A DNA stretch of 62,949 nt, filler included, from Candidatus Rokuibacteriota bacterium (GTDB lineage: Bacteria; JAUVQV01; DATDCY01): NCBI GenBank assembly GCA_031406795.1. It is 4 parts of 4 records of this genome, joined end to end, with 100 filler letters (N's around TTAATTAATTAA, not from the genome) between each part and the next. Parts side by side here need not be neighbours in the genome. Positions count along the whole stretch, not along the records: positions 53,905 to 62,949 come from JANOHV010000013.1; 3 more parts are not named here. One strand, written 5' to 3'. The notes beneath the pieces were generated by a model that saw nothing but the letters and a program-made list of their open reading frames with translations, was not told the origin of the DNA and searched no databases. Within the stretch, counting starts at the first letter, position 1; each line of letters starts with the position of its first letter. A program made the translations under genes and the position numbers. Below, piece by piece: positions 647 to 62,949 of the stretch.

Positions 647-648
647 CG

Positions 649-1518: not shown

Positions 1519-1544
1519 GGCGTTGCTCGTGCGGTGCTCCGGCG

Positions 1545-2822: not shown

Positions 2823-2879
2823 GATAGAGGCAAAGTAGGTACCACGACGCGCGCGGAGTGTCAAGAAAACGGGGGCTGG

Positions 2880-3209: not shown

Positions 3210-3236
3210 GCCTTCCTCCTGTTCGCCGGTGCCCGT

Positions 3237-3875: not shown

Positions 3876-3946
3876 GCCGGGCAGGATGACACACCGGAAC
3901 CTGCCCGGCAAGCGTCCCTGCGATCGCGCGGAATACCTTTTCTCGG

Positions 3947-4072
3947 GCAGGCGGCTCAAAAAGGTCCAGGTTGCAAGGCGGGCGAGCCCGGAGGAGTGAG
4001 GCGTACTCCAGTACGCCGCAGCGACGAGGGGCGAAGCCCAACGCCGCAGATGGGCCTTTTTCAGCCGCCTGC
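3947..4072 (-). repeat. rod-like dispersed repeat, family A, copy 1
   Basis: About 22-bp terminal inverted repeat (GCAGGCGGCTcAAAAAGGTCCA...TGGGCCTTTTTcAGCCGCCTGC) and central hairpin GGCGTAC-N4-GTACGCC. Similar to 28533-28657 and 41852-41970. Confidence 0.9.
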
Positions 4073-4073
4073 G

Positions 4074-4454
4074 CTAGCGCGGAAGCAGGGTGGCGAGGAG
4101 GTGCCCGGCCCAGACCGCCGCCAGCCCGAGAACGACCTGCCCGCAGGCGTTCGCCGCCGCGAGCGCGGTCTCGCCGACCCGCACCAGGAAAAACGTCTCG
4201 TAGCCATACGCGGAAAAGGTCGTGAATCCGCCGAGAAAACCGGTGATCAGAAAGAGGCGTTGCTCGAGGCTGAACACCCCGCGCGCCTCGGCGAGACCCG
4301 TCAGGAAACCGATCAGCAGGCAGCCGGTCGTGTTCACCGCGAGCGTCCCCCACGGGAAGTGCGCGTATCTCGTCGCGGACTGGACCGCACCGCTCGCCAG
4401 ATAGCGCAGCATCGAACCGAGAAACCCGCCGGCGCCGACCAGGAGCAGCTTCAT
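4074..4454 (-). CDS. crcB: fluoride efflux channel CrcB/FluC
   Basis: GGFLGSMLRY, FPWGTLAVN and TGFLGGFTTFS signature motifs. Confidence 0.95.
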   Translation of the reverse strand: MKLLLVGAGGFLGSMLRYLASGAVQSATRYAHFPWGTLAVNTTGCLLIGFLTGLAEARGVFSLEQRLFLITGFLGGFTTFSAYGYETFFLVRVGETALAAANACGQVVLGLAAVWAGHLLATLLPR

Positions 4455-5614: not shown

Positions 5615-5722
5615 GGCCCTTGAGTCTACCCCCGCAGTCGCGTTGACTTCAACTCCTGCCGCACCTACGATGCCGGGCGGGGACCACGACAGGGACGACA
5701 GAAGACGGGAAGACCAAGCGCC

Positions 5723-5977
5723 ATGACGACCGCACCACCGCCGGCTGCGCCGACCGACACGACGCGCGTCGTGCTGCGGCTCGCGCCGGCGCAAATCGTC
5801 GATCTGCACTGTGTCATCGAGGGGTACGACGATCTGGCGGTCCTGCGCACGCTCGATGCCGCCGCCGGACTCGTCGAGATCCTCGTCTCCCCGGGCTCCG
5901 AGGAGGAGTTCGAGAACCTGCGTCTGGCGCTCTGCCGCGAGAGCCTGCCGACAACCCGCATCGAGGGGGAAACCTGA
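5723..5977 (+). CDS. DUF4911-like small protein
   Basis: IEGYDDLAVLRTLD...G.V motif. Stop overlaps the tldD start. Confidence 0.7.
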   Translation: MTTAPPPAAPTDTTRVVLRLAPAQIVDLHCVIEGYDDLAVLRTLDAAAGLVEILVSPGSEEEFENLRLALCRESLPTTRIEGET

Positions 5978-7359
5978 TGACCGCCGACCCGACGCTCGCC
6001 CGGCTCGCGCGCCGCGGCGCCGACTTCGCCGAGTTCTTCGAGGAGCGCTCCTCCTCGCTGCTGGTACATCTGGAAGACGGCCGCGTCCAGAAAGTCCTCC
6101 AGGGGGACGAATCGGGACTCGGGTTGCGCGTGCTCGCCGGCGACCAGACGTTCTACACCTACTCTCAGCGCCTCGGGGCGGCCTCCGGGCGCGCGCTCGC
6201 CGTGGAACTCGGGCGGGTGAGCGGCGCGCGCGCCGTCGGCGCGAAGCGCCACCGGTATCTGCGCGTGGGCCCCGCACCGGCGCCGGCGAGACGCCGCATC
6301 GCGGCCCCGGTGCCGACCGTCCTCACGACTCTGGTGCGGCGCGTCGACCGCCTCGTGCGCGCCGTCAGCCCCGCGATCCGCCAGGTGATCATCGCCGGCC
6401 GCGAGCGACGCCAGCAGGTGCGTATCGCCAACTCGCTCGGCGAGAGCGCGCGCGATCGGCGCATCGCCTCGGTCTGGATGGTGCAGGTGGTCGCCGCCGA
6501 CGGCGCCGTGATCCAGACCGGCTACGAGACCGCGGGCGGCAGCACCGGGCTCGGCGCGTTCCCTTCCGACACGCTCGAGCGCATCGGGTTGGAGGCGGCG
6601 CGCCGCGCGGTGCAGATGCTCTCGGCGCGACCGGCCCCCGGCGGCCGGATGACGGTCGTGCTCTCCTCCGAGGCGGGTGGAACGATGATCCACGAGGCGG
6701 TCGGCCACGGTCTCGAGGCGGATCTCGCGCAGGAGGGCTTTTCGGTGTACGCGAAGAAACGCGGCAGGCGCATCGCCAGCCCGCTCGTTTCGGTCGTCGA
6801 CGACCCGACACTCTGCGGCGCGCGCGGCAGTTACACCGTGGACGACGAGGGGGTCCCGGCCGAGCGCACGCTGCTCGTGGAGCGCGGCGTGCTGCGCACG
6901 TACCTGTTCGACCGTCTCAGCGCCGCCAAGGACGGACGCGCGAGCAACGGCCACGGACGGCGCCAGTCGTACCACCAGCGGCCGATCCCGCGGATGTCCA
7001 ACACGATGATCCTCCCCGGCGGCGACGACCCCGCGAAGATTCTCAGGGAAGTCAGGCAGGGCCTCCTGGTCAGGAAGATGGGCGGCGGCCAGGTCAACAC
7101 CGTCAACGGCGATTTCGTCTTCGAGGTCACCGAAGGCTACCGGATCGAGGGCGGCGAGGTCGCGTATCCGGTGCGCGGCGCGACGCTCGTCGGCAACGGC
7201 CCCGAGGTGCTGCGACAGATCGACCGCGTCGGCACGGACCTGGGCTTCGCGCTGGGCACCTGCGGCAAGGGCGGCCAGGGGGTCCCGGTCTCGGACGCCC
7301 AGCCGACGATCCGCATTCCGGAACTGACCGTCGGAGGCACGGAATCCGGCACGAAATAA
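5977..7359 (+). CDS. tldD: TldD-family metalloprotease subunit
   Basis: HEAVGH zinc motif, DDEG, PRMSNT and CGKGGQ. Confidence 0.93.
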   Translation: MTADPTLARLARRGADFAEFFEERSSSLLVHLEDGRVQKVLQGDESGLGLRVLAGDQTFYTYSQRLGAASGRALAVELGRVSGARAVGAKRHRYLRVGPAPAPARRRIAAPVPTVLTTLVRRVDRLVRAVSPAIRQVIIAGRERRQQVRIANSLGESARDRRIASVWMVQVVAADGAVIQTGYETAGGSTGLGAFPSDTLERIGLEAARRAVQMLSARPAPGGRMTVVLSSEAGGTMIHEAVGHGLEADLAQEGFSVYAKKRGRRIASPLVSVVDDPTLCGARGSYTVDDEGVPAERTLLVERGVLRTYLFDRLSAAKDGRASNGHGRRQSYHQRPIPRMSNTMILPGGDDPAKILREVRQGLLVRKMGGGQVNTVNGDFVFEVTEGYRIEGGEVAYPVRGATLVGNGPEVLRQIDRVGTDLGFALGTCGKGGQGVPVSDAQPTIRIPELTVGGTESGTK

Positions 7360-7673: not shown

Positions 7674-7950
7674 GGCGCCTGCGCTCCCTTTGGTTCATCT
7701 CCCGCGCGGTGACGATCAAGGCCCTGTTGACAGCTTTCCTGATAAAGAACACGGAAAGCCGGCGCCCAGCCTTCGTCTCACCGAAGGCATTATACAGGTC
7801 CTCACCCTCGACTGTCCCGCTCTCCCACCGAAAAATCCGGCAGCGCCCTTTGAGGACTTCCTCAACCTCGTTGGGGAGAACAGCGTGCTTCCAGGCGAGC
7901 TTCTCAACAACCGGATCCAACCATACGATCTCAGTGATTCTGTTTGGCAC
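7660..7950 (-). CDS. putative BrnT-family toxin
   Basis: KLAWKHAV...EVEEV...FGETKAGRRL...VTAREM...ERRR pattern of BrnT/DUF497. Confidence 0.8.
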   Translation of the reverse strand: MPNRITEIVWLDPVVEKLAWKHAVLPNEVEEVLKGRCRIFRWESGTVEGEDLYNAFGETKAGRRLSVFFIRKAVNRALIVTAREMNQRERRRHEKK

Positions 7951-14736: not shown

Positions 14737-15797
14737 CCTCGGCCTTTGCGGCGCTTCGAAGCCTGCGCCGGGGCGGCTTTCGCCGGCGCGGGCTTCAGAT
14801 TCTTCCGCCGCACGACCTTCGCGATCGTGATCGGCTCGCCCGCGTCGTACTGGTAGACCGCGCGCCCGATCTGGCCGATCGCCTGCTTGGCCTGCGTGAA
14901 GGAGCCGAACTCGGTGGTGAGCACCGCGATCACGAAGTCGTGGTTGCGCCCGTAGAGGATGCCGACGTCGTGGCAGGCGTCCTTCATCAGGCCGGTCTTG
15001 TGCGCGACGACGACCCCCGCCGGCAGATAGCGCGGCAGCCGGTCGCGGACGTGCTGCCCCTTGAGGATCTCGAGCAGCTGCTCACTGGCCGGCGGGTCGA
15101 GGATCTGCTTGGCGTAGAGGGCCTTGAGCAGGCGCCCCATGTCCGTGGCGCTCGTGTAGTTCTCGATCTTGTTGTCGCGCGCCGTCAGATCCATGATGTA
15201 GCGGGGCATGCAGGTCGCCGTGAGTCCCTGGCGGTGGCAGGAGCCGTTGATCTCCTCCAGGCCCAGCAGGTCGGTCAGGATGTTTGTCGCCGTGTTGTCG
15301 CTGCGCTGCAGCATCAGTTCGAGCAGGTTCGCGACGGTGAGTTTCGTCCCCGATCGCGTGCGTTTGAGCACGCCGCTGCCGTCGGCCTTGTCGGTCGCCT
15401 TGAGCACCACCTCGGCATCGAGCTGGATCTTGCCGGCCAGTTCCTGCTCGAAAACCGAGACGGCGATCGGCAGCTTGATGACGCTCGCCGCCGGGAGCTG
15501 CTGGTTCTCGTTCCAGACGAGCGTCCGGCCGGTTTGCAGATCCTCGATGTAGTAGGAGATCACGCCGCGGAAACGCCCGCGCACGCCGGCGAGGAAACCC
15601 TCGAGTTCACCCCACTGCGGGGGGGCGGGCGGCGGGATCGACGCGAGCACCACTGGTTTTTCGGCCGTGCTCGTCGCCGAAGGAAGCGCGAGTCCGGCGA
15701 TCATGCACGCCAGCGCGCACGCCGCAACCCGGCGCGACAGGAGGTCACGCCGCGGCGCGGGTGAAGCAGGCCCGGTCGGCGAAAGGTTCTTTATCAT
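14733..15797 (-). CDS. serine hydrolase with class A beta-lactamase-like fold
   Basis: SVIK, SDN and HKTG motifs. N-terminal hydrophobic segment. Confidence 0.85.
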   Translation of the reverse strand: MIKNLSPTGPASPAPRRDLLSRRVAACALACMIAGLALPSATSTAEKPVVLASIPPPAPPQWGELEGFLAGVRGRFRGVISYYIEDLQTGRTLVWNENQQLPAASVIKLPIAVSVFEQELAGKIQLDAEVVLKATDKADGSGVLKRTRSGTKLTVANLLELMLQRSDNTATNILTDLLGLEEINGSCHRQGLTATCMPRYIMDLTARDNKIENYTSATDMGRLLKALYAKQILDPPASEQLLEILKGQHVRDRLPRYLPAGVVVAHKTGLMKDACHDVGILYGRNHDFVIAVLTTEFGSFTQAKQAIGQIGRAVYQYDAGEPITIAKVVRRKNLKPAPAKAAPAQASKRRKGRG

Positions 15798-21514: not shown

Positions 21515-21614
21515 NNNNNNNNNNNNNNNNNNNNNNNNNNNNNNNNNNNNNNNNNNNNTTAATTAATTAANNNNNNNNNNNNNNNNNNNNNNNNNNNNNN
21601 NNNNNNNNNNNNNN
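21515..21614. other. artificial contig linker
   Basis: N44-TTAATTAATTAA-N44, with stops in all six frames. Confidence 0.98.
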
Positions 21615-49276: not shown

Positions 49277-49376
49277 NNNNNNNNNNNNNNNNNNNNNNNN
49301 NNNNNNNNNNNNNNNNNNNNTTAATTAATTAANNNNNNNNNNNNNNNNNNNNNNNNNNNNNNNNNNNNNNNNNNNN
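49277..49376. other. artificial contig linker
   Basis: N44-TTAATTAATTAA-N44. Confidence 0.98.
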
Positions 49377-50793: not shown

Positions 50794-52482
50794 TCACCCC
50801 TTCACTTCGAAGACATGCAACAGCACGCGCGCCCGCGCTGCCGCCGTGTAGAGGATGGCGCGGTCGCTGAAAAGGTCGTTCTCCCGCACGTCGATCAGGA
50901 TGACGACGTCGGATTCCAGGCCCTTGAACTTGTGGATCGTGGTGCAGAGTACCGCGCCCTCGCGGTTCAGCGGGTCGGTGGAGAGACGCTGGCCGGCGAG
51001 CTGGTCGACCCCGCTGAGGCTGCTGTTCTCCTTGGTGTGGGGGGCAATGACCGTGATTCGTCCGGGGGGGACCTGCTTTTGGTTCACCAGATCCTCGACG
51101 AGCCGGTCGACGGCGCGTGCGGCGGCTGCCGCCCCGTGCGGCTGTGGGTGGAACACCGGCGCTTCCCCCTCGGGGTTGCGCGTGAAGGGGGCGGCGGCGT
51201 GCTCGGCGAGGCCGCGCAGGAAGCCGGCGATGCTGCGGGTGTTGCGGAAGTTGACGCCGAGGACAGTGGCCGGGTGCGGGGGGAGGTTGCAGCCTGTGCC
51301 GAAGATGTCCTGCGCCGGGTCGTAAAAAACGACGAAGGTGCCGCGCGCCGGGTCGCGCAGGAGCCCCTCGAGCAGGTCGAACCAGTCCCGGTGAAAGTCC
51401 TGGCCCTCGTCGACGATCACGGCATCATAGCGGGGAAGCAGACCGGCCTCGAGCGCCGCCAGGAGTCTGTCCGGCATCAGTTCGTTCCAGTACGCCCCGG
51501 CGGCCGGCCTGTCGCCGGCGGGGGGCCGCGGCGGGACATCCCCGGTGGCTGCCGCGGCCTCGGCGCAGAGGTCGTGGAAGGTCGCCGCGCGGACGCGGTC
51601 CGCGAGCGGGCCCCAGGAAGCGATGATCTCGCCGATCCACCGTGCCAGCGCGATGTTGAAGCAGGTCAGCAGGACGTGCCGGCCCTCGAGCGCGGCCGCG
51701 CGCGCCAGCTCGAGCGCGAGCAGCGTCTTGCCGCTGCCGGCCCCGCCGCGGACGAGCAGGCGCGGGGCGGAGACCAGGCTGCGCAGCACCTCGATCTGCT
51801 CGTCGCTCAAGCGAACGATGGCCTGGCTGTCGAGCTCCAGGCGGGCGCCGAAGGTGGGGGCGAGCCTCCAGCGGGGGAGAAGGACGTGCTTGCGGAACTG
51901 GGTGAACTGGCGCTCGTCGAGCGCGCGGGCGGGCGGGCGGCCGCTCCCCCAGTACCCGAGGATCTCGGGCACGCGCCTCCCGAGGCGGGCCAGGTCCTCG
52001 CCGAAAAGAACGATCCCCGGCGAAACCTCCGCGGGCAGGGGGCCGAGGCGGCCGGCGCCGACGGCGGGGAACGCGACGGCGTGGCCGTACACGAACGGAA
52101 AGGCGCCATCGAGTTCGGGGAAGAGCCGCGCGATCTTCGGGCGGAGCTCATCGACGAGTTCCTTGATGTGCCGCTGCGACTGGCGAAAGGGGCTCTCGTC
52201 GAGGGGCTCCTCGCGGCCGCCGGCGGCCAGGCGCATCCAGGTGCCGTCGCCGCGCAGATGGACGCCCTCTCCCTTGCACCCGATCGCGAGCAGCCCCAGC
52301 TCGCGGTGGACGACGAGAAAGTCGATCGCGCCCTCACGGGGCTGCACGCTGCCGAGGTAGGCGTAGTCGTGAAAGACGTGGAACTCCTCGGGGAGGCCGG
52401 AGCGCAGAGCCTCGAAGAGGTTCTTCTCGGCGAACCACCCGGGGCGCCAGAGCGGGGGGGAGGGGGGAACCATGAGCGCCAC
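50794..52482 (-). CDS. NERD-domain + SF1 helicase-like protein
   Basis: IDFLVVH...KG, GGAGSGKT, VDEGQD, NFRNT, FKGLE and YTAAARA motifs. Confidence 0.85.
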   Translation of the reverse strand: MALMVPPSPPLWRPGWFAEKNLFEALRSGLPEEFHVFHDYAYLGSVQPREGAIDFLVVHRELGLLAIGCKGEGVHLRGDGTWMRLAAGGREEPLDESPFRQSQRHIKELVDELRPKIARLFPELDGAFPFVYGHAVAFPAVGAGRLGPLPAEVSPGIVLFGEDLARLGRRVPEILGYWGSGRPPARALDERQFTQFRKHVLLPRWRLAPTFGARLELDSQAIVRLSDEQIEVLRSLVSAPRLLVRGGAGSGKTLLALELARAAALEGRHVLLTCFNIALARWIGEIIASWGPLADRVRAATFHDLCAEAAAATGDVPPRPPAGDRPAAGAYWNELMPDRLLAALEAGLLPRYDAVIVDEGQDFHRDWFDLLEGLLRDPARGTFVVFYDPAQDIFGTGCNLPPHPATVLGVNFRNTRSIAGFLRGLAEHAAAPFTRNPEGEAPVFHPQPHGAAAAARAVDRLVEDLVNQKQVPPGRITVIAPHTKENSSLSGVDQLAGQRLSTDPLNREGAVLCTTIHKFKGLESDVVILIDVRENDLFSDRAILYTAAARARVLLHVFEVKG

Positions 52483-53804: not shown

Positions 53805-53904
53805 NNNNNNNNNNNNNNNNNNNNNNNNNNNNNNNNNNNNNNNNNNNNTTAATTAATTAANNNNNNNNNNNNNNNNNNNNNNNNNNNNNNNNNNNNNNNN
53901 NNNN
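53805..53904. other. artificial contig linker
   Basis: N44-TTAATTAATTAA-N44. Confidence 0.98.
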
Positions 53905-54118
53905 GTTCACCCCGCCGGTTGGTATGCCCGTAGAGATGCGCCTGGTAGCCCCGCACGACTTCCCGCGTGATGCCGGCGACGTCGTCCACGTCGTTCTCGT
54001 CAAGGAATTCAAAGAACCGCCTGAGGTAAAAGCGATGCTGCTTGATCGTGCCGGGGGCGAGGTTCCGGACAGCCATGTGCGCCAGATAGCGCTCCGCAAG
54101 GGTCGCCAGGTCAGTCAC
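53905..54118 (-). CDS. second tyrosine recombinase, N-terminal SAM-like domain (truncated by gap)
   Basis: YL.HM..RNLAPGTI......LRRF.EFL...ITREVVRGYQ.HL parallels the N-terminus of the adjacent recombinase. Confidence 0.75.
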
Positions 54119-55100
54119 GGCGGCGCGGCTCCTTCACGGTCCTGATGTCGGGAGTGAATTCTTCCTTAACCGCCTCGTCACGCTCCCGGGGATGCGAGAG
54201 ACGGTGTGTCTTCTTGATCTCCACGCCGGCAACGTGCGCATACAACTGCGTCACCGAGAGGTTGGCATGCCCGAGCATCCTTTGCACCGCGGTGATGTCC
54301 GCGCCATTTCGGACCATATCCGTCGCGAACGTGTGCCGAAAGGTGTGGGGCGTGACATTCTTTCGCATGCCGGCGGCGCGCGCGTATTTCCTCACTGTCT
54401 TCTGAACGGCTTGCTGCGAAAGCGGCACGCCCAATCGGCCCACGAACAGGCATCTCTCCGCCCGTTTCCCCCGCGTGTAGTGCGGACGCACCTTCGCGAG
54501 GTACGTCTTCAGGAACTTCACGGCGTGGCGGCCGAGGGGGATCACCCGGTCCTTGGCTCCCTTGCCCTTGTTGACCCGCAGCAAGCCTCCTTGCAGATCG
54601 CAATCAAAGAGTGTCAGGCGCCTCAGCTCCCCCAGCCGAATCCCGGTGGAGTAAAAGACCTCCAGCATGGCGCGGTCCCGGACACCGATTTCGAGCGAGA
54701 GGTTCGGCGCATTCAGGATCCGCCGTGTCTCCTTCGCGGTCAGCACCACCCGCGGCAGGCGGGTTTCTTTCTTCGGCTCCTTGAACGTCTCGGCGGGGTT
54801 GACCAGGATCCGGTTCATCGCCTCCAGGTACTCGAACAGCCGCCTTACCGCGCGGACCTTGAGGCAGAGCGTCGAGACGCTGTAACCACGGTCGCCGCGG
54901 ACTCGGTGCTCCGCGAGCCGCAGCCGGTAGGCTTCGAGGTGGTCACGGGTGACACGTTTGGCGTCCTTGACGCCGATCTCGGCGAGATAGGCAAAGAACC
55001 CGCGCAGATAGTCGGTGTAGGTGGCAATGCTCGCCGTGGTGTAGCTCTTGACCTGCAGGTGCTCCCGGAACGCAAAAAGCAGATCCTCGAACGCGCTCAT
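54111..55100 (-). CDS. XerC/D-like tyrosine recombinase
   Basis: TGIRLGEL, KGKGAKDR, HTFRH, LGH and TQLY give the full catalytic set. Confidence 0.95.
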   Translation of the reverse strand: MSAFEDLLFAFREHLQVKSYTTASIATYTDYLRGFFAYLAEIGVKDAKRVTRDHLEAYRLRLAEHRVRGDRGYSVSTLCLKVRAVRRLFEYLEAMNRILVNPAETFKEPKKETRLPRVVLTAKETRRILNAPNLSLEIGVRDRAMLEVFYSTGIRLGELRRLTLFDCDLQGGLLRVNKGKGAKDRVIPLGRHAVKFLKTYLAKVRPHYTRGKRAERCLFVGRLGVPLSQQAVQKTVRKYARAAGMRKNVTPHTFRHTFATDMVRNGADITAVQRMLGHANLSVTQLYAHVAGVEIKKTHRLSHPRERDEAVKEEFTPDIRTVKEPRRRD

Positions 55101-55156
55101 CTGCCAACGAACACTCGGCGGTTAAGAGAGAGCGGTATCCATGCTCTTGCCACGAA

Positions 55157-55288
55157 CCCTCCAAGTTGGGGACGGATTGCCCGTAACTCCTTGCCGGGCA
55201 AGGTCTGGCGGTGTTTCGCGGTCGCCCTCCAAGTGCCCACCAACCGCCCTCCAACTACCCTCCAAGTTCACGGATTCGCCCTCCAAGT
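55157..55288. repeat. iteron-like direct repeats CCCTCCAA(G/C)T
   Basis: Copies start at 55157, 55225, 55236 (variant), 55247, 55258 and 55279. Four are spaced exactly 11 bp apart. Confidence 0.85.
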
Positions 55289-57996
55289 TAGGGCTGCGGC
55301 GCCGGGCGTTCCTTGGTCCCGGCGATCCTTTCCCTTAACCGCTCCACGCTCATGAGCCCCGCGAGGAACGGTCGGCCGTCCTCACCGCCGCCCGAATAGA
55401 GCAGCTCGTAGATGTACTCCTTGCCCTTCTTGCCGGCGACCGAGTAGAGGTACTCCATGTCCTCAAGCTGTTTGATGTGGCACTTGACCTGGAAGTCGCT
55501 CCACCGGCACCAGTCGCGCACGTCGCGGCGCGTAAAGTGGAACTCCGCCACTTCGGTCTTCGCCTGGCGGCACCTGGCCTCGACCATCTCCCGGATCATC
55601 TTCAAGAGCAGGCGCGAGGGCGGGGAGAGCTCGTCCAACGTGCGGCCCAGCACCTCGCCGGCGAGGCGGTTGGCCTTTTCGATGTCCTCGAGCGTCACCT
55701 CGATGTACTCGATCACCGCGCCGCCGTGCTCGACGCTCTTCACCGGCCGTTGGTATTGGTGCAGGAACGCGATGGCCTTGATCAGCCCGAGGTACTTCTT
55801 GTGGTCCCGCCGCGCTCGTAAGGAATCGGAGGGGAACGTCAGGTGCCCGGCATAAGGGTTGATCACCTGCAGGGGCCGTAGGAGCCGCTGCGCGTTCTGG
55901 TGGCGGCGCACCACGCAATCGGTCTCGGCCTTCTTCACCAAGCCCGCCAACGTCTCCTGCTCGCGCTGCTTGTCGAGGATCTTCTCGGTCATTTCCCGGG
56001 ACTCGTCAATGGTGAGCGTCACGAACCGGTTGCTCGTCTCGTAGTCCAGCTCGACTTCGGTCGTCGTGATCATCAGCGCCACCGGCCCCCGGACCCGGTA
56101 CTCCTCGGTCTTGAGCTTTCCGGTGGCCGGGTCCTTGCCGGTCGCGGCGATCGTGAGGCACTTCGCGGACTGAATGTTGCGGATGCTGTAGGAGGCCTCC
56201 CGCGCACCGTGTTCCTCCTCGATGGCGAGGAGTTTGTGAACCAGACTGTCTTCCTCCTTGTAGAACAGCGCCTGTCCGGTGAGCCGGGTGTACTTGATGC
56301 AGTCTTCCGGCGGCATGAGCGAGATCACGGCGTCCTGCAACGTGCTCTTGCCCGCCGCACTTCTGGACTGGACCAGCACCGAGATCGGATCATCGAGCTT
56401 GCGGCTCGTGGCGGCCACGTACCCGACGAGCTTGTTCGCCTCCTCGCCCGTGAGCCCGATCGTCTCGAAATCCTCCAGAATGCGGTTAAAGAGGGAAGGG
56501 TCTTTCAGGAACTCCAGGGCCTCCTCTTCATCGGTCCGGGTCATCTTCGGCGCGCTGGACTTGTCCTCCTTCGCCGACGGCGACCACCCCTCCGCCAGTT
56601 CGATCAGCCGGGTGACGTCCTCGGCGACCAGGTCTTCCTTTTCCCCGAACAGCTCCGCGCAGGCCTTCGCGAACAGAACGCGACTGCGGTTCGAATTCAG
56701 GTCCACGGTGTCCAGGTGGAACTTTTCCCGGGTGTCGCTCTGGCCTCGCTTGACAGCCTTCACCGTGAGCCGCAGCCTGAGGCCGGTCTTTTCGACGCCG
56801 CGCACCTCGTACCGACGTTCCCCGTATTGCACGACAAAGCCGCCCTCAGTCGGCTCGTAATGCCGCCGCTCGGCCTTGACCGACTTGTCGGAGTGGACGG
56901 CTGTCCGCGGATTCGCCTCCCGCAGCAGCCGCTCGAACACCGCGGCCGGCTCGGGGACGGTTGCAAAGAGACTGTTCACGTCCACCTTCGTCGCGGCGTC
57001 GCCGGCAGCGGGGAGGCGCATGACGTAGGCCGCGATGCCTTTCTCTTTTAACTGCCCGGCGATCTTCTCGGCGCCCTTGTCCCCGGCATCGTCCCGATCA
57101 AAGCAGACGTAAACCTCCTTGGTCTTGTGCCGGGCAATGAGGGCGAGATGGTCCTCCGTGAGACCGTTGACACCCCAGCATGGCACCACGTCCTTGAACC
57201 CGGATCCGTAGAGCGTCAGAGCGTCAACCACGGACTCGGCGAGGATCAGGGTGGGACTCCTCTTAACCGCCGGGTGGTTCCAGACACCTTGCCGTGGACC
57301 GGGCAGGTAAAGGTGGTTGACCTCGCCATCCGTGATCCGCCGTCCGTAGAGCCCCACGCAGTCCCGGTTCTCGTCGAACACCGGGAACACCGCGCACCCG
57401 TAGAACAGCTCCCGGCCCCGCTCGGTGAGGATCCCCGCTTCCCGGAGGGCGGCACGGACGTCGCCTTCCTCGGGCACGGTGTTCAGGAGCGTCCCGTTGG
57501 CATAGCCGACCTGGAAGTTCTCGAACGTCGCGGCGTCCGTGATCCCCCGGGCCTTGAGGTACTCACGCGCTCGGGGGTCTTCGCAAAACGTCTGGTGGTA
57601 AAAAGACACGACACGATTGAGCAAACGCACACGATTTGGTGACGAAACGTCGGGCGCCGGCACGTCAGTCTTGCCGCCTCGCCCTTTTAAAAGGGCGGGG
57701 GCCGGGGTGGGAGACCCTTTACCATTGCCGCTGCGTAGTTTCTCGACAGCTTCTCGAAACCCGAGGCCATCTTTTTTCGTGAGGAATCCGATTGCGTCAC
57801 CGCCAGCGCCGCACCCGAAACAGTGCCAAAGATTCGTCTTGGGATTGACAGTAAATGAGGGGGTCTTCTCATCGTGGAACGGACACAAGCCGACCCAGTT
57901 CGTCCCCTTGCGCTTGAGCACCACCCCGCCGGACTCCACCACCGCCCGCAGGTCCGCCCGCTTGATCGCAGCGAGCTCCTCCCGATTGATCAGCAT
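55288..57996 (-). CDS. CHC2 zinc-finger/Toprim DNA primase fused to a P-loop ATPase (primase-helicase-like)
   Basis: CPFHDEKTPSF...CFGC, AESVVDA, CFDRDDAG, SRSAAGKS and LLAIEEE motifs. GAGGAG RBS before ATG 57996. Confidence 0.9.
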   Translation of the reverse strand: MLINREELAAIKRADLRAVVESGGVVLKRKGTNWVGLCPFHDEKTPSFTVNPKTNLWHCFGCGAGGDAIGFLTKKDGLGFREAVEKLRSGNGKGSPTPAPALLKGRGGKTDVPAPDVSSPNRVRLLNRVVSFYHQTFCEDPRAREYLKARGITDAATFENFQVGYANGTLLNTVPEEGDVRAALREAGILTERGRELFYGCAVFPVFDENRDCVGLYGRRITDGEVNHLYLPGPRQGVWNHPAVKRSPTLILAESVVDALTLYGSGFKDVVPCWGVNGLTEDHLALIARHKTKEVYVCFDRDDAGDKGAEKIAGQLKEKGIAAYVMRLPAAGDAATKVDVNSLFATVPEPAAVFERLLREANPRTAVHSDKSVKAERRHYEPTEGGFVVQYGERRYEVRGVEKTGLRLRLTVKAVKRGQSDTREKFHLDTVDLNSNRSRVLFAKACAELFGEKEDLVAEDVTRLIELAEGWSPSAKEDKSSAPKMTRTDEEEALEFLKDPSLFNRILEDFETIGLTGEEANKLVGYVAATSRKLDDPISVLVQSRSAAGKSTLQDAVISLMPPEDCIKYTRLTGQALFYKEEDSLVHKLLAIEEEHGAREASYSIRNIQSAKCLTIAATGKDPATGKLKTEEYRVRGPVALMITTTEVELDYETSNRFVTLTIDESREMTEKILDKQREQETLAGLVKKAETDCVVRRHQNAQRLLRPLQVINPYAGHLTFPSDSLRARRDHKKYLGLIKAIAFLHQYQRPVKSVEHGGAVIEYIEVTLEDIEKANRLAGEVLGRTLDELSPPSRLLLKMIREMVEARCRQAKTEVAEFHFTRRDVRDWCRWSDFQVKCHIKQLEDMEYLYSVAGKKGKEYIYELLYSGGGEDGRPFLAGLMSVERLRERIAGTKERPAPQP

Positions 57997-58261
57997 GTGC
58001 CGCTCCTCTCGTCTTATTTCTCTCGTCACCCCGTAAGGTCTGGAACAAAACGTCTCGAAGCTGGTTCAGGCTCTCCCTCAGCCGCAGAGGATTTACCGTG
58101 GCGTTGCCGTTGCGGTACGTCTCCTCGATCTCCGAGAGGTCTTCGCCGACGATCCGGAATGCCACGATCCGCCGATCGAAGTCAGAGACGTAAGCCCCGT
58201 CCAGCTTGCCGCCCTTGCACAGCAGGAACGCTCCTCGAAAGACGTCGGTCGTCTCAAGCAT
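57869..58261 (-). CDS. hypothetical protein, first gene of the replication/recombination operon
   Basis: ATG at 58261 with GGAG upstream. Globular-looking sequence. Its tail overlaps the primase start. Confidence 0.6.
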   Translation of the reverse strand: MLETTDVFRGAFLLCKGGKLDGAYVSDFDRRIVAFRIVGEDLSEIEETYRNGNATVNPLRLRESLNQLRDVLFQTLRGDERNKTRGAAHADQSGGARCDQAGGPAGGGGVRRGGAQAQGDELGRLVSVPR

Positions 58262-58336
58262 CGTTCTCAACTCCAGCCACCTCCTCTCCACAAAAATCGT
58301 GTCAAGCGCTTTTTCGCCCGAAATACATGCTACCAT

Positions 58337-58366
58337 AAAATAACGATTATCGTTATTCTGTGTCAA
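58337..58366 (-). promoter_or_regulatory. sigma70 promoter overlapped by palindromic operator AATAACGAT-T-ATCGTTATT (58339-58357)
   Basis: Minus strand TTGACA-N18-TATTTT with a perfect 9-1-9 inverted repeat in the spacer/-10 region. Lies between divergent xre and the primase operon. Confidence 0.7.
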
Positions 58367-58400
58367 GGGCGATTTACTACCAGAGATAGAATCATCGCCC

Positions 58401-58766
58401 ATGAAAGGAAAAACGACGGTCACGGACTTCGGGAGCAGACTTGCCACCCTCCGCAAGGAACGGGGACTCACCCAGCACCAGCTCGGCGAGAGTGTCGGTG
58501 TGTCGAACAGGGTCATCCACTACTACGAGGGGGAGACGCAATACCCGCCGGCGCACCTGATTACACCGCTCTCCAAGGCGTTGAAAGTCTCCACCGATGA
58601 ACTCCTGGGCATCCGGGAGGTCAGGCAAGAGCGCAGCCCGGAGAACGCCGCCCTCTGGCGACGCCTGCGCAAGATCGAGACCCTCCCCAAAAGAGACCAA
58701 AGGGCGCTCCTGCACTACCTTGACGCCTTGGTGCAAAAGAACGAACCTACCAAGGTAGGAGGGTAG
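58401..58766 (+). CDS. XRE-family HTH transcriptional regulator
   Basis: FGSRL..LRKERGLTQ.QL...VGVS...I.YYE and LKVSTDELLG motifs. Confidence 0.92.
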   Translation: MKGKTTVTDFGSRLATLRKERGLTQHQLGESVGVSNRVIHYYEGETQYPPAHLITPLSKALKVSTDELLGIREVRQERSPENAALWRRLRKIETLPKRDQRALLHYLDALVQKNEPTKVGG

Positions 58767-58773
58767 AGGCGCG

Positions 58774-59019
58774 ATGCCGGTGGTCTTCCGGTATAAGGGT
58801 TATCGGTTCTTCTTCTTTTCCAACGAGGGCGACCCGCGCGAGCCGATGCATATCCACGTCAGAAAGGGAGAGGCCACCGCCAAGTTCTGGATCAACCCCT
58901 TTGTCGCCATCGCCGAGGCCTACCGGCTGGATGCGGCAGAACTGCGGGAGTTGGCCAAAGTCGCCGAGGAGAACCGTGGGCGGATCGAAAGGAGCTGGAA
59001 TGAACACTTTCCCGAGTAA
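58774..59019 (+). CDS. DUF4160-family protein (putative TA component)
   Basis: GYRFFFFSNE...EPMHIHV...AKFW...W.EHF signature. Confidence 0.88.
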   Translation: MPVVFRYKGYRFFFFSNEGDPREPMHIHVRKGEATAKFWINPFVAIAEAYRLDAAELRELAKVAEENRGRIERSWNEHFPE

Positions 59020-59281
59020 CGCTCAGGCCACCAGGCTCGCCTTTGACGAGAACAGCTTCACCGTCTATCTCGCCGATGGCAGGATCCTCAATGTCCCGCT
59101 GGCTTTCTTCCCGCGCCTGTTGCATGCCGACCAGCCCCAGCGCGAGCACTACGAGCTCAGCGGCGGCGGCACCGGCATCCATTGGGACGACCTGGACGAG
59201 GACATCTCCGTCGAGGGGTTGCTTCTTGGCGTCGGCGACAGGACACGCCGCCACCTGGAACCGTCTCAGAAATCCGCGTAG
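59000..59281 (+). CDS. DUF2442-family protein (putative TA component)
   Basis: L.DGR.L.VPL.FFPRL...GIHWDDLDEDISVEGLL signature. Confidence 0.88.
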   Translation: MNTFPSNAQATRLAFDENSFTVYLADGRILNVPLAFFPRLLHADQPQREHYELSGGGTGIHWDDLDEDISVEGLLLGVGDRTRRHLEPSQKSA

Positions 59282-59288
59282 ACCGGAG

Positions 59289-59516
59289 ATGGCTGACAAC
59301 GAACGAGCCGTGATGCGTGACGCATTCGACGAATCGTTCGACGAGTTCATCGAAAAGGGCTGGATCGAGGAGACCGGCAGTGGCTCCGAGGGGGAGCCGG
59401 TTTACCGTCTAACGGACAAGGCCATTGAGGAGCAGCTTTATCTGGTCGAGCTATGGAAAGCCCTCGCGAACAACAGTCCAGCGGAAATCCTTAAGCGGAT
59501 CGCCAAGTCGAACTGA
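59289..59516 (+). CDS. small hypothetical protein (possible winged-helix remnant)
   Basis: 75 aa with GWIEE...VYRLTDK. GGAG precedes the ATG. Confidence 0.5.
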   Translation: MADNERAVMRDAFDESFDEFIEKGWIEETGSGSEGEPVYRLTDKAIEEQLYLVELWKALANNSPAEILKRIAKSN

Positions 59517-59572
59517 CGCTACGTCCGGAGTCTGGCAGTGATGTGTAACCATGACCACAGAAAGGGAGTGCT

Positions 59573-61453
59573 ATGAAACGAGGGACTGTCTCATGTTCGT
59601 GGGCACTCGTCCTTTCCTTGGCGGCATCGGTTCACATAGCCAACGCAGCTAGCTTTGATTGTGCGAAGGCAGGATCAACAGCCGAGAAATTGATCTGTAA
59701 AATCAAGCAACTCTCAGACCTCGATGACCAACTCTCCGCACAATACAAGACCGCGATGAGCACTACCTCCAACAAAGAAGCTATAAAGGCTGAACAACTC
59801 CGTTGGCTGAAGGAACGTAATGCCCAAAAAGATGAGACTTCCTTGAGGTATGTTTATGAGGGACGCATTGCAGTTTTGACCATGGGGGGGGAAGAGACAC
59901 TGAGAAGGCGAGCTGAGCAAGGCGACGTTAAAGCTCAGGTCATCCTCGGGGAAATGCTATCCATGAAGAACGACGCCGAAGATATCAAATGGTTTCGCAA
60001 AGCCGCGGAGCAGGGAAACGTTGACGCTCAGGTATTATTGGGGGTGCGCTATTCCGGTGCCGAATCGATCAAATGGTTACGCAAGGCTGCCGAGCAGGGG
60101 TCCACTGAAGGCATGGTGCTCATCGCTGTCTCGTATTACGACGGCCGTAATGGGACCCAGGACTACGCCGAAGCGATCAAGTGGTACCGCAAGGCCGCCG
60201 ATTTGGGCGATGCCAACGCTAAGTGCAGACTTGGGGAGATTTACTCAGAAGGGATCGGCGTACCCCGGGACTACGCCGAAGGGATGAAGTGGTACCGCAG
60301 TGCCGCCGCGCAAGGCGATGGCCCTGCTCAGGACGCACTGGGCGAGATCTACTGCAAGGGTGAAGGTGTGCCTCAGGACACCGCCGCCGGAATCAAGTGG
60401 TACAGCATGAAGGCGGAACACGGAGAGCGACTTCATCAGCGCCTCCTCGGGGATATGTACTACAAGAGGTACGACCACAACAAAGATACATGCGTACCTC
60501 AGGATTACACTGAGGCTGCGAAGTGGTACCGCAAGGCCGCGGAACAGTGGGACATTGACGCTCCATTGCACCTCGGGGAGATGTATGCCAATGGCACTGG
60601 CGTACCCAAGAACAGCGCCGAGGCTGCAAAGTGGTACCGCCAGGCGGCAGAACTGGGGAACGTCGAGGCGCAGTTACACCTCGGGGAGATGTACTCCACA
60701 GGAACCGGCGTGCCCAAAGACTACGCTGAATCTGCGAAGTGGTACCGCGAGGCGGCGGAGCAAGGGAGCGCTCCGGCTCAGATCAATCTCGGGGAGATGT
60801 ACTCAGAAGGGATCGGCGTACCCAAAGACAGCGCCAAGGCCGCCGAATGGTACAGCAAGGCGGGCGAGCATGGCTATGAATTTGACGCAGCCGATCAGCC
60901 AACACCTGTACCCTCTTCGGAACCTGCTCCCGATGTACCTCCTGCACCGATATCGACGCCACCATCCGCAGCAGCCGCCGGCGCGCCTGCTGCCCGAACA
61001 ACCAACACGCCTGAGCCCTCCTTGAAGATTAAAGGGCTCTTCATCGGAATGGATATCAGGACGGTGCCAGCGATCTTGAAACAGAAGTTTCCTGATGGAC
61101 AAGACTTCGAAGTTGGGGATCTCATTGCCGAACGACAATCTGTTCTGGTTCTCCATGGAACGGATGGTGTTGTCTGTATTATTGCGTGTGGGCCCGACAG
61201 CCCGGCCGTAGTTGCCATAGCTTTCGAGAAGGTTGCCGTCGATGCCTTGTTCAATGCCGCTGGCATGGAGGCATCGGAGTTTGCCAAAGCTTTTGTCGAC
61301 GGGTACCAGATTCCAAGCATGGATGTCAGCGACGACAGAAAGTCCTGGGTCTATCTCAGCCCAGAAGGCTATAAGGTCAGCATTACTTTAGGCAAGCAGC
61401 TGATCATTGTTAAGACTCCAAACTCCACCGAACGAAAGAAGTCTTTTGATTAG
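59573..61453 (+). CDS. exported LprI-like + Sel1-repeat protein
   Basis: Signal peptide, ASFDCAKA...EKLIC...LD..L, and repeated A.KWYRKAAEQG...AQ..LGEMY..G.GVP.D. Confidence 0.92.
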   Translation: MKRGTVSCSWALVLSLAASVHIANAASFDCAKAGSTAEKLICKIKQLSDLDDQLSAQYKTAMSTTSNKEAIKAEQLRWLKERNAQKDETSLRYVYEGRIAVLTMGGEETLRRRAEQGDVKAQVILGEMLSMKNDAEDIKWFRKAAEQGNVDAQVLLGVRYSGAESIKWLRKAAEQGSTEGMVLIAVSYYDGRNGTQDYAEAIKWYRKAADLGDANAKCRLGEIYSEGIGVPRDYAEGMKWYRSAAAQGDGPAQDALGEIYCKGEGVPQDTAAGIKWYSMKAEHGERLHQRLLGDMYYKRYDHNKDTCVPQDYTEAAKWYRKAAEQWDIDAPLHLGEMYANGTGVPKNSAEAAKWYRQAAELGNVEAQLHLGEMYSTGTGVPKDYAESAKWYREAAEQGSAPAQINLGEMYSEGIGVPKDSAKAAEWYSKAGEHGYEFDAADQPTPVPSSEPAPDVPPAPISTPPSAAAAGAPAARTTNTPEPSLKIKGLFIGMDIRTVPAILKQKFPDGQDFEVGDLIAERQSVLVLHGTDGVVCIIACGPDSPAVVAIAFEKVAVDALFNAAGMEASEFAKAFVDGYQIPSMDVSDDRKSWVYLSPEGYKVSITLGKQLIIVKTPNSTERKKSFD

Positions 61454-61457
61454 GGAT

Positions 61458-62237
61458 ATGAAAACAAGCGACCAGGAAAAGAAACATTACGCACGCCAAG
61501 AATGCAGGGCTTTTTCATCGTGGGATCAGCTCCTGCCAGTTGGGCAGTTAAGCGTGGTCTTCCATGCCATCCATGGCTTGGAATCGGCGTGGGGAAAAAC
61601 AGGTGATCTGGCAGAACAAAATAATTACAACCTGTTTCGAGCACTCAACCCACACATTAGTCCTGCTCTCGTCAATCCGATCATCAGCGGTAGCTTTAAG
61701 CCTAGGAATTTCATTCACCGCTTTGAGCAGCACTATTCTACGCCGGGATATTTGGACATACAGGTTTTGCCACACTTTTTTAAAACCGTGGACGAATTGG
61801 CGCATAGTTTTGTAGACAAGAAGGAGAAAGATGAGGCCGAAGAATTCCTAGCGTTTGTCTACATGTACTTTCTCATTTGCCATCCCTTTGTCGACGGAAA
61901 TGGCCGAGTAGCACGCAGTCTGCTTGATTACTATAATCACAAATTAGATTTTATGATCCATGATGTCTGGAACAATTCAGACCCCAAGTTCGCCAACGAG
62001 GCATTTCACAAGGAAGCTTTCAATATGTTCTACTGCTCACAGGCACATCTCATTTCATACGACTATGCAACGGTTGTATCTCTCCCAATACATGTCAAGC
62101 AGGAGTTGACTAAATTAGCCGACCATCTGATCGGATGGGCTGATAATGTCAGAAACTCAAAAGCTCTATCGAGCTACAGGAGTGTTTCAGTTATGGCGAA
62201 TGGAATCAGGATGCTCCATTCAAAGAAGGGAGTCTGA
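61458..62237 (+). CDS. Fic-domain protein
   Basis: Canonical HPFVDGNGRVAR motif. AT-rich relative to the host. Confidence 0.88.
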   Translation: MKTSDQEKKHYARQECRAFSSWDQLLPVGQLSVVFHAIHGLESAWGKTGDLAEQNNYNLFRALNPHISPALVNPIISGSFKPRNFIHRFEQHYSTPGYLDIQVLPHFFKTVDELAHSFVDKKEKDEAEEFLAFVYMYFLICHPFVDGNGRVARSLLDYYNHKLDFMIHDVWNNSDPKFANEAFHKEAFNMFYCSQAHLISYDYATVVSLPIHVKQELTKLADHLIGWADNVRNSKALSSYRSVSVMANGIRMLHSKKGV

Positions 62238-62436
62238 TCGATCCGTCAAGTCGAGGTTGCCTCGTGCAGTCTCAAGCCAGATCCGACGCCTGACGTTTCC
62301 CCCAGGATCAACGATTCTCGGTCCACGAAGGCTTGTGTTACCGTGCCAGTATCCCCCGCCCGCCCCGTGCTCCGGGCCACCTCCGCCAGCTCCGGGACTC
62401 CGGTCACTACGGCACCGCAAAAGCCGCTCCGCTCAG

Positions 62437-62468
62437 CACGGCCGATAACTGCGCAGTTATCGGCCGTG
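62437..62468. repeat. perfect 32-bp palindrome
   Basis: CACGGCCGATAA-CTGCGCAG-TTATCGGCCGTG. Confidence 0.9.
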
Positions 62469-62566
62469 GCCATTCAGTCACGCCCCTTGCAGCCAAAGCA
62501 GCGGTTAAGGAAAAAACAGGCTCGTTCCGCAAGGGTCGCGCCTTCATGGCTCCCCTCGCTCCCGCT

Positions 62567-62591
62567 TTTACATAACCGGAGGTTATGTAAA
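62567..62591. other. dif/att-like tyrosine recombinase core site
   Basis: TTTACATAA-CCGGAGG-TTATGTAAA. The inverted arms resemble the CATAA...TTATGTTAAA core of dif. Confidence 0.7.
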
Positions 62592-62949
62592 CTTTTGCGG
62601 TGCCTCCGTTCCCTACGCCCCTGCGCCACCTCCGGCGGCCCTCCGCACTCCCGTCCGGCCCCCAGGGGCCTCCCTTCCCGTGCAGAGGCGCTCCGTCATG
62701 CGCCTTGCCCGCGGCGGCAAGGCGCCCGCCGTCGCTACCGTGCCAAAAACAAGCCGTTAAAAGAGGGATGCGGATCTTTCCCTTAACCGTCGCCGTGCCG
62801 ACAATTGCGGGGTCAAGTACGCAAACGACATCTCGATTGTGAGGCTAGAAAGGTCCACGGTCCCCGACGATGCCGAGAGCCACATACTCGAATCCCCATC
62901 GACAGTTACGGGTTCGTGCCCGGAGGAGCGCAATCGGATTATTGCCGCA

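Follow-up and report, generated by a model that had tools for sequence, protein, structure and literature searches.

A probable family of small integrative, self-replicating elements that pair a primase-MCM-like helicase with two Xer-like recombinases, seen from one copy in a bacterial metagenome contig

We analysed a 62,949-nt stretch of DNA (hereafter the window) assigned to a Candidatus Rokuibacteriota bacterium (assembly GCA_031406795.1) and found that its last contig, a metagenomic sequence of 9,045 bp (53905-62949), probably holds most of one copy of a small (~7-10 kb) integrative and self-replicating element that belongs to a widespread family. The core of the element is an operon that runs on the minus strand from 58261 and consists of a small open reading frame (ORF), a gene for a primase fused to an MCM-like helicase and the genes for two tyrosine recombinases, in this order; a repressor gene diverges from it and is followed by cargo (Table 1). 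In the literature, supplements not covered, we found no description of an element with a primase and twin Xer-type recombinases, nor of integration targeted at Rhs genes, which we observed in relatives of this element.

The window consists of four contigs, joined by linkers of the form N44-TTAATTAATTAA-N44 at 21515-21614, 49277-49376 and 53805-53904. Because the linkers separate the contigs, the element is confined to the last one; and as the parts of the window were joined artificially, gene-neighbourhood arguments that span the linker positions are invalid. The left flank is missing because the contig breaks at 53905, which truncates recombinase 2 after 71 residues. The contig itself is a real molecule: 93-97% of its sampled words are present in three runs of one freshwater-sediment study, and unitigs of these runs cover it at an even depth of ~6-8. 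One of these three near-identical runs may be the contig's own source and would then not be independent. All four runs used were examined as contigs or unitigs, and depth here is that of contigs or unitigs and not of reads. At the left end, one contig of run X3 reaches 593 nt beyond 53905, and the contigs of the closest metagenome relatives stop within 116 bp of this position (locus L093; loci of relatives carry L numbers throughout) or earlier. The G+C content of the contig ranges from 0.48 to 0.64 (0.63 over the core, 0.48 over the cargo), compared to mostly ~0.69 in the other contigs. Sequence joints listed for the contig were given no weight, their sides being only 20-30 nt long and lying within Sel1 repeats or relatives.

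The largest gene of the operon encodes a DnaG-type primase in its N-terminal part (TIGR01391 dnaG domain, E 2e-54; sequence match to DnaG in the PDB), and the N-terminus matches phage primase families in PHROGs as well. An alternative start, the ATG at 57996, would give a protein of 902 aa. For the C-terminal 529 residues (385-913) no PDB match was obtained by sequence. We therefore rely on a structural model of this part (39 homologues in the alignment; predicted local distance difference test score 80.8), for which Foldseek returned MCM helicases with an E-value of 4e-11 over 550-600 columns; VIA aligned ~280 residues of MCM structures, among them the archaeal MCM entries 6mii and 4r7y, with Z 22-23 and a root-mean-square deviation of 2.9-3.1 Å (best: 281 residues, Z 23, 2.9 Å). 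The model combines an N-terminal beta domain, an AAA+ core fold and a P-loop, as in the MCM family, and the helices after the AAA+ core can be read as winged-helix-like. The Walker A motif is SAAGKST, its P-loop GKS/T being invariant among the homologues. The C-terminal half thus matches, as a prediction, an MCM-like AAA+ helicase.

Recombinase 1 shows the motifs GIRLGEL, HTFRH and LYAHV in translation. Its best NCBIfam matches are an XerC subfamily (269.5 bits, cut-off 371), XerD (244.6 bits, cut-off 329.6) and a further XerC model (238.2 bits, cut-off 335.15). The start of recombinase 2 overlaps the stop codon of recombinase 1, and the remaining fragment corresponds to the N-terminal SAM-like domain; in a relative (L001), recombinase 2 scores 242 and 231 against XerD and XerC, again below the NCBIfam equivalog cut-offs. 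As the best XerC/XerD scores miss these cut-offs, both recombinase types are judged by their sequences to be Xer-like paralogues rather than the chromosomal XerC and XerD. The small ORF has no Pfam match; Atlas gives a lead, and a lead only, to the phage-associated DUF5659 (0.89). The best NCBIfam match of the divergent XRE gene is the RstR family NF041951 (70.6 bits, cut-off 80). Taken together, Pfam, NCBIfam and tblastn matches confirm the leftward operon that had been proposed in an original prediction made from the sequence of the window alone, with the second recombinase present as a fragment.

Table 1. Features of the element contig (positions 53905-62949 of the window)
Feature	Position	Strand	Evidence and remarks
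Tyrosine recombinase 2, 5' fragment, 71 aa	53905..54118	-	Match to Phage_int_SAM_1/4; cut at contig end
Tyrosine recombinase 1, XerC/D-like, 329 aa	54111..55100	-	Pfam Phage_integrase, E 1.7e-46
Iteron array, putative replication origin	55157..55288	-	Six TTGGWGGG units, a short palindrome, then a lone iteron
DnaG-type primase fused to MCM-like AAA+ helicase, 913 aa	55288..58029	-	Pfam CHC2, DnaG_N, Toprim
Conserved small ORF, ~80-aa core	57869..58261	-	tblastn; tail overlaps primase start
XRE-family repressor, RstR-like	58401..58766	+	HTH_31/HTH_3; divergent from operon
DUF4160 + DUF2442 gene pair	58774..59281	+	Pfam, E 1.1e-18 and 1e-18
ORF, family not matched in Pfam	59043..59516	+	Short ORF
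Secreted Sel1-repeat protein with LprI-like N-terminal domain	59573..61453	+	Pfam Sel1, E 1.5e-71, 7 stretches; LprI
Fic-domain protein	61407..62237	+	Pfam Fic, E 4.9e-8; start probably ATG near 61458
Four-helix structured module	62413..62623	+	Covariance model, 134 bits; ~180 nt; P2 = palindrome 62437-62468, P4 = site 62567-62591
Segment common to L083/L084	62674..62736		blastn; holds palindrome GCGCCTTGCC-CGCGGC-GGCAAGGCGC (62700-62725)

Relatives of the primase-MCM protein are numerous: 5849 of 7994 scored candidates match at E <= 0.001, the best 120 with 63-93% identity over 93-99% of the query and mostly on contigs of 3-30 kb. Among species-representative genomes, 158 stretches encode such a relative; we analysed the best 80 of them (78 distinct loci) together with 4 loci from an earlier genome scan and 18 metagenome loci. 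Judged by record titles, the carriers include Nitrospirota, many Desulfobacterota, Gammaproteobacteria, Burkholderiales, Spirochaetes, FCPU426 and Polyangiaceae, and the complete chromosome of Desulfosarcina alkanivorans PL12 carries two separate loci (L019 and L036). The gene order is strongly kept. A tandem recombinase pair lies 3' of the primase gene in 39 of the 42 loci whose downstream sequence spans at least 3.3 kb (the exceptions being L035 and L080, with a single recombinase, and one L022 copy, with none), and a divergent xre gene lies 5' of it in 52 of the 55 loci with at least 1.3 kb upstream; the core of the small ORF was found just 5' of the primase gene in ~44 loci among the first 60 tblastn matches listed. 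These counts bear out the earlier statement that similar xre-primase-two-recombinase neighbourhoods occur elsewhere, and the sequences argue for a widespread family whose core recurs across several phyla. Some primase genes contain in-frame stops (one each in L026 and L032, two in L044) and others give split matches (L010, L011, L022 and L064); by their sequences, decayed copies exist next to intact ones.

That the family is mobile can be seen in its relatives, in which an Xer-like recombinase pair and a replication module of the element's own, as had been proposed, go together with exact ends, tandem arrays and end overlaps of the circular type. The clearest case is provided by L015 and L016, which lie 2 Mb apart on one 6.2-Mb contig and have 6,892 bp in common at 99.97% identity, with differing flanks. 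A core AGG(G)CAA stands at both ends, and the exact boundaries fall at 7917-7920 and 14801-14807 in locus coordinates. Between them lie a tip gene, a small ORF, a structured module, xre, the primase-MCM gene and two recombinase genes only; by ORF position no capsid or transfer gene was seen in this 6.9-kb element, the tip gene and the small ORF that follows it having no Pfam match. The gene interrupted by the L015 copy is an unrelated one for a repeat protein, and the insertion lies where the sequence resembles the core AGGGCAA, as is typical of a secondary attachment site. Right junctions were mapped in L015/L016, L023, L044, L049 and L001, ~0.2-0.9 kb past the recombinase. Multi-copy genomes are found as well, with seven loci in one metagenome-assembled genome (MAG) of Desulfofustis and five in one of Desulfobulbia, and at least L024, L033/L034, L049/L078, L073 and L080 hold tandem arrays, whose periods range from 8.3 to 10 kb. 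Many element copies are located at contig ends; as the element is multi-copy, assemblies break at these loci. Terminal overlaps of 151 nt (L028) and 127 nt (L090), each equal to the assembler word length, were found in two of the 100 sources checked, and would mark either a circle or a tandem repeat. Two further observations concern single loci: at L036:6024-8666 (D. alkanivorans) an additional unit of the module, xre and the first 315 primase codons precedes the full copy by 2,498 bp, and L038:7549-7603 is identical over 55 nt to L048:1-55 of the same MAG, the two being assembly-graph neighbours split at a repeated element.

The phased repeats that had been noted after the primase gene are real: the units begin at the primase stop codon and are in phase with the DNA helix, four of the six are ACTTGGAGGG, and their spacing is 21, 11, 11, 11 and 68 nt. 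Exact matches to ACNNNGNGG number 4 in the window array compared to 0.36 expected, and at least three such matches were found in 51 of 70 primase-recombinase spacers of relatives (0.1-0.8 expected in most). In these, spacings of 21, 21, 11 and 57-68 recur at the same intergenic position, and the iteron word differs by lineage (ACTTGGAGG, ACTTCGAGG, ACTACGAGG, ACTTGGTGG, ACCCCGAGG and ACTCCGAGG). Since the geometry is kept while the sequence co-varies, as initiator/iteron pairs show, we infer that the array is an origin, which the primase-MCM protein would recognise with its C-terminal part. The words CCTTGCC/GGCAAGG, common to the origin palindrome and the palindrome at 62700, were too few to count.

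A second trait of the family is its link to Rhs toxin genes. Of 99 loci, 36 contain the motif RxY(D/N/S)PxxGR(F/Y/W), with 52 instances in total; all of these are on the primase-sense strand, either 2-3 kb 5' of the primase gene or directly past recombinase 2. In 8 of the 15 cases examined, the reading frame before the upstream motif runs for 1,086-2,639 codons; the long frame of L001 is an RHS-repeat protein (RHS_repeat, E 1.7e-62). In L016, the element sits inside an Rhs-type frame of 1,311 codons, exactly at the RARYYDP codons, and brings its own RARYYDP copy with a new tip, the old tip being displaced beyond the right end. The 3' ends of very long Rhs/YD-repeat genes are occupied in this manner at L016:4494-8429 (and from 14808 onward), L001:2122-6480, L044, L019, L063, L070, L059 and L007. 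Junction comparisons show that element-type sequence changes to Rhs sequence at short cores; that of L077, ATCGTAATACTG-CCGGGG-CAGTATTACGAT, is perfectly palindromic and encodes PGQYYD in its right half. No Pfam match was obtained for the Rhs tips of L015 and L028. By their sequences, about one third of the relatives sit in Rhs toxin genes and supply a new C-terminal tip, which is followed by a small gene. The motif was not found in the window contig, whose left end is missing, and the window cargo is of a different kind from the Rhs tips and has the opposite reading direction.

Beyond the cargo, the contig carries the site TTTACATAA-CCGGAGG-TTATGTAAA at 62567-62591, which had been described as dif-like, and, at 62437-62468, a 32-bp palindrome without mismatches. 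Palindromes of this ATAA...TTAT type (NNNNNATAA-N6-8-TTATNNNNN) occur 51 times in 1.09 Mb of loci, compared to 8 in shuffled sequences, and come in pairs whose members are separated by ~90-125 bp. Thirteen regions with such a pair were aligned and revealed four helices, all of which covary: a long-range closing helix P1, a hairpin P2 with XerC-like arms, a helix P3 with a variable loop, and P4 with XerD-like arms; in a MAFFT version not fitted to the model, 21 of 38 pairs are compensatory. A covariance model found 33 full-length copies in 25 of the 100 sources, and a second model built from 28 sequences found the same 33 sites and added none. For 26 distinct sequences, aligned by fitting to the model, which favours pairing, 94.2% of the cells are paired, compared to 72.8% in shuffles and 31-46% with the partners slid, and 26 of 38 pairs show compensatory changes (9/9 in P1 and 7/8 in P3). 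The window module folded alone with DNA parameters gives the same helices (z -5.16), and in Rfam neither strand of the 9,045 bases gave a match at E <= 1. Wobble is scarce, with 11 G.T and 31 A.C cells of 941; as wobble pairs are rare, the module is more likely DNA than RNA. A weaker module-like match (19.9 bits) lies at 62634-62791.

Of the module copies, 23 stand on the primase-sense strand, 150-500 bp 3' of recombinase 2, and 10, the window's included, stand on the xre-sense strand, downstream of xre and cargo. Of nine xre-sense copies in loci, seven lie 119-1,103 bp past a mapped xre gene, L085 and L001 being unmapped; L023, L052 and L053 have two inverted modules. In this arrangement the modelled strand of the module is the gene-sense strand and, if forks exit the iterons both ways, would also be the lagging-strand template. 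A different arrangement is found in L001, L038, L042, L048, L051, L061 and L077, where two full dif-like sites stand inverted and ~60 bp apart and fold into a single long hairpin, whose duplexes are formed by XerC and XerD arms and whose centre is mismatched (e.g. L061:7390-7586, L077:12890-13100 and L001:7130-7330). A derivation of these paired sites as products of a P2/P4 inversion was rejected on paper, since inversion would yield direct and not inverted hybrids. In run X4, a sediment metagenome of another study, the summed depth on the module bin 62361-62662 is 354, compared to 0-217 elsewhere; this seems to say only that many sequences there share the module segment.

One might read the site at 62567 as a double-stranded attachment site on which the twin recombinases act as XerC/D do at dif. 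The TTTACATAA/TTATGTAAA arms are indeed exact in L013 and L032, 300-650 bp past recombinase 2, the stems of P2 and P4 are similar to the XerC and XerD arms of dif, L061 carries a near-canonical dif and L080 carries GGTGCGCATAA, and the excess of palindromic sites over shuffles fits this idea, too. However, the module lies at 8947-9125 of L015/L016, ~1 kb inside the mapped ends, the Rhs-type junctions of L023 and L049 follow 230-280 bp past it, and the homology of L029/L033 continues for 364 bp beyond P4. As the module is internal to the mapped ends and falls short of the junctions, it is probably not the crossover site; moreover, the long-range helix P1 and the variable-loop helix P3 covary, for which a flat duplex site has no need. 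We therefore consider an attachment role of this site unlikely. What remains of the earlier description is the dif-like sequence itself, which in this analysis is one hairpin of the module, and from its position in relatives the module is a conserved cis element.

Further to the right, 50 nt 3' of the module are kept in L018 and L026, and the segment at 62674-62736 recurs in L083/L084, where it stands on the opposite side of the segment preceding the module. Because of this recurrence the element extends to at least 62736. The segment may be a core-type site or an element boundary: its palindrome has 10-bp arms and a 6-bp spacer, the unitigs of the three near-identical runs all end at 62662 and restart at 62726, and in run X2 other sequences continue from 62699 and 62726.

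The window copy could also be a free small plasmid, in which the primase-helicase and the iterons form the replicon and the Xer-like pair merely resolves multimers at the module palindromes. A separate 9-kb contig with a G+C content below the rest of the bin would suit a plasmid, as would the circular-type end overlaps of two relatives, the 3-12 kb contigs on which most family members are found and the Xer-like arms of the palindromic sites. Against this, relatives are embedded in contigs of 0.2-7.3 Mb, one of them a complete chromosome, with exact insertion junctions; multi-copy repeats are expected to give short contigs anyway; the flank sequence at 62674-62736 recurs in relatives in another order; and an element that is found both as a free circle and integrated fits the integrative explanation. 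A plasmid confined to the free state is hence quite improbable in our view.

The contents of the contig speak to the kind of element. The DUF4160 gene (58774-59019) and the DUF2442 gene (within 58901-59281) form a pair with a putative toxin-antitoxin role; the 108-nt DNA repeats of the contig are the Sel1 units of the gene at 59573-61453; and the Fic ORF has an intact HPFVDGNGRVAR motif in translation, with the Pfam match spanning its residues 121-175 only and the G+C content dipping to 0.48. The divergent XRE gene followed by putative toxin-antitoxin, Sel1 and Fic cargo, as originally proposed, is thereby confirmed by Pfam domains, the Fic match being partial. Translations of the ORFs at the right contig end (62757-62948) were uninformative. 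The cargo also appears to be variable: the closest relatives share DNA only from ~58308 leftwards and differ on the xre/cargo side, and L083, whose primase is 87% identical, carries on the xre strand (285-7270) genes for a hybrid histidine kinase, a phosphonate-binding protein, CheW, a methyl-accepting chemotaxis protein and a porin. These genes, which have xre on one side and a partial match to the module on the other, either form large cargo or belong to the host. The sequences support a variable xre/cargo side for the family as a whole.

No capsid, terminase, relaxase or type IV secretion system family was matched by the 11 ORFs of the contig in Pfam or by the 6 that were also searched in PHROGs, in agreement with the lack of phage structural and transfer genes reported before. 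Whether the missing left flank could hide a prophage or integrative conjugative element module was checked indirectly, through relatives: the second recombinase is all that follows in 39 of 42 of them, and the mapped right junctions lie ~0.2-0.9 kb beyond it. The family is one of integrative and very probably self-replicating elements that lack capsid and transfer genes. The suggestion that the element is satellite-like found no support, there being no sign of a life as a phage satellite. A satellite of the phage-inducible chromosomal island (PICI) type, in which a helper phage lifts the repressor, a pri-rep-ori module replicates and helper capsids package the DNA, is very unlikely. In its favour, the repressor diverges from a primase/helicase gene with iterons directly 3' as in Staphylococcus aureus pathogenicity islands (SaPIs) and PICIs, the weak lead of the small ORF is to a DUF associated with phages, and the primase N-terminus matches phage primase families. 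Against it, the terminase small subunit, capsid-remodelling and packaging-interference families (terS, cpm and ppi) are unmatched among the same ORFs (remote homologues being possible) and were not noticed by ORF position in the 6.9-kb relative, a helper phage is not seen, a pair of Xer-like recombinases takes the place of the usual single integrase, and 5-7 copies per genome with tandem arrays would be unusual for PICIs.

Several points weigh against the integrative, self-replicating element that we favour. Junctions, circular-type overlaps and multiple copies were seen in relatives and not for the window copy itself, of which the left end is missing and the right end unmapped. The assignment of the element contig to its host is weak, the contig being just one of the bin's members and deviating in G+C content; the aspartate aminotransferase, taken as a housekeeping protein, finds at best 56% identity among species-representative genomes. 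Taken alone, the covariation seen in P2 and P4 might also arise from palindromes to which proteins bind, G.T pairs are rarer than A.C pairs, so that either strand of the module may be the folding one, and circular-type end overlaps can also stem from tandem repeats. The nearest primase relatives, L005-L011 (63-69%) and L066 (78%, C-terminal part), have no strong module match (L005 a weak one, E 0.003, with the first model); the module is therefore not universal and is exchangeable between lineages. Finally, the roles of each recombinase and of the module are putative.

With these points in mind, the life cycle of an integrative, self-replicating element can be sketched as follows. The XRE/RstR-like repressor would hold the operon silent. 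Upon its relief, the recombinase pair would excise a circle at short core sites with inverted arms and a 6-8 bp spacer, and the primase-helicase would bind its own iterons, open the origin and prime replication of the circle. Copies would then reintegrate, often adjoining a resident copy, which would give rise to tandem arrays. The module would most likely work as folded single-stranded DNA, either for the recombinases or as a priming signal. Excision, replication and regulation are here deduced from the genes and from the relatives, as is whichever state, integrated or free, the window copy may have. One can go further and propose that the Xer-like pair of this new class of elements acts on folded single-stranded DNA (the module, with one XerC-type and one XerD-type hairpin, or in other members a CTX-like hairpin) that is exposed when the primase-MCM helicase fires the iteron origin, thus coupling replication and recombination, that sites mimicking the Rhs core (PGQYYD/RYYDP) make the elements tip-rewriting cassettes, and that the window copy swapped its tip for the toxin-antitoxin, Sel1 and Fic genes; we offer this extension tentatively, as possible but rather doubtful.

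Parts of the architecture are familiar from known systems. In the pri-rep-ori modules of SaPIs/PICIs and in P4 alpha, primase, hexameric helicase and origin recognition are encoded together, with an iteron origin 3' of the gene. The present family resembles these integrative elements in its joint primase-helicase, the iterons directly 3' and the divergent repressor, but differs in the fusion of a DnaG-type primase to an MCM-like helicase, in the two recombinases, the lack of packaging genes, the many tandem copies and the lack of a known helper. Integrative mobile elements exploiting Xer (IMEX) have no recombinase of their own, use the host XerC/D and insert at the chromosomal dif. Like these elements and CTX, the family has dif-like arms, an RstR-like repressor and tandem arrays, and the long hairpin of the seven loci with inverted dif-like sites is like the folded CTX attP(+); by contrast, it has its own recombinase pair and inserts elsewhere, and in the window the C-type and D-type arms stand on separate hairpins. 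Because the element encodes recombinases and the mapped insertions of relatives lie in Rhs or repeat-protein genes and not at dif, we do not count it among the IMEX. The IncQ plasmid RSF1010 has an oriV with the priming hairpins ssiA and ssiB, and phages have priming signals of the G4 type. Iterons, an own helicase and primase, and structured single-strand signals on opposite strands are common to the IncQ system and our family, in which three loci have inverted modules; here, however, the modules are 2-4 kb away from the iterons, are larger (four helices) and have Xer-arm-like stems. Recombinase-in-trio (RIT) elements, in turn, have three adjacent tyrosine recombinase genes, in contrast to the two in 39 of 42 relatives and the single gene of L035 and of L080; in the window copy the second gene is truncated.

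Other integrative elements offer parallels in life style. Staphylococcal cassette chromosome (SCC) elements use serine recombinases and a different primase-polymerase, and their Cch helicase is MCM-like. Cch was not among the 50 PDB entries listed as structural matches to the model of the primase C-terminal part, with a likeness still being possible. The Cch helicase of SCCmec and its primase are the subject of one report (PMC7581432). Like our element, SCCmec is capsid-less and transfer-less, combines an MCM-like helicase with a primase and so may replicate after excision. Tycheposons are, according to their description, elements with one recombinase of a distinct clade, integration at tRNA/tmRNA genes, replication genes and variable cargo (bioRxiv 10.1101/2020.12.28.424599); with integrase, replication genes, cargo and repeated integration that gives neighbouring copies, theirs is the closest life style. 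They differ in that our family has two Xer-like recombinases, Rhs or other targets, iterons and a folded module, and no tRNA or tmRNA gene was found in the window; the single clade recombinase at a tRNA/tmRNA gene is thus not what we see, as judged by recombinase number, profile scores and the tRNA search. The strand-biased circularizing integrative elements SE-6283 and SE-6945 have the core intA-CDS2-intB-CDS4, and the main text of their report does not contain the word 'primase' (PMC9345347). They, too, are small integrative elements with two tyrosine recombinases and inverted end motifs, but their recombinases are not Xer-like neighbours and the core gene order differs. In a 2012 survey of polymorphic toxin systems, XerC/D recombinases were found adjacent to polyimmunity loci (PMC3482391), which likewise associates Xer-type recombinases with Rhs/polymorphic-toxin loci; the passage in question speaks of adjacency only, and not of an element, a primase, attachment at Rhs cores or replacement of tips (PMC3482391).

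One side observation concerns the neighbouring contig, on the minus strand of which (50794-52482) a 562-aa ORF with a GSGKT P-loop has the look of a UvrD-type helicase with a putative N-terminal nuclease-related domain.

Small elements that integrate and replicate and are neither viral nor conjugative are represented by few systems (PICIs, SCC, pipolins, casposons and tycheposons), to which the present family would add one. Its members abound in bacteria from sediment and groundwater that belong to several phyla, and its cis architecture is readable, with an iteron origin, core sites and a covarying module that bears Xer-arm-like hairpins. Until now, the exchange of toxin tips has been explained for the most part by homologous recombination that involves orphan cassettes. 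The link of the family to Rhs genes suggests a site-specific route for the exchange of polymorphic toxin tips, and perhaps of immunity genes.

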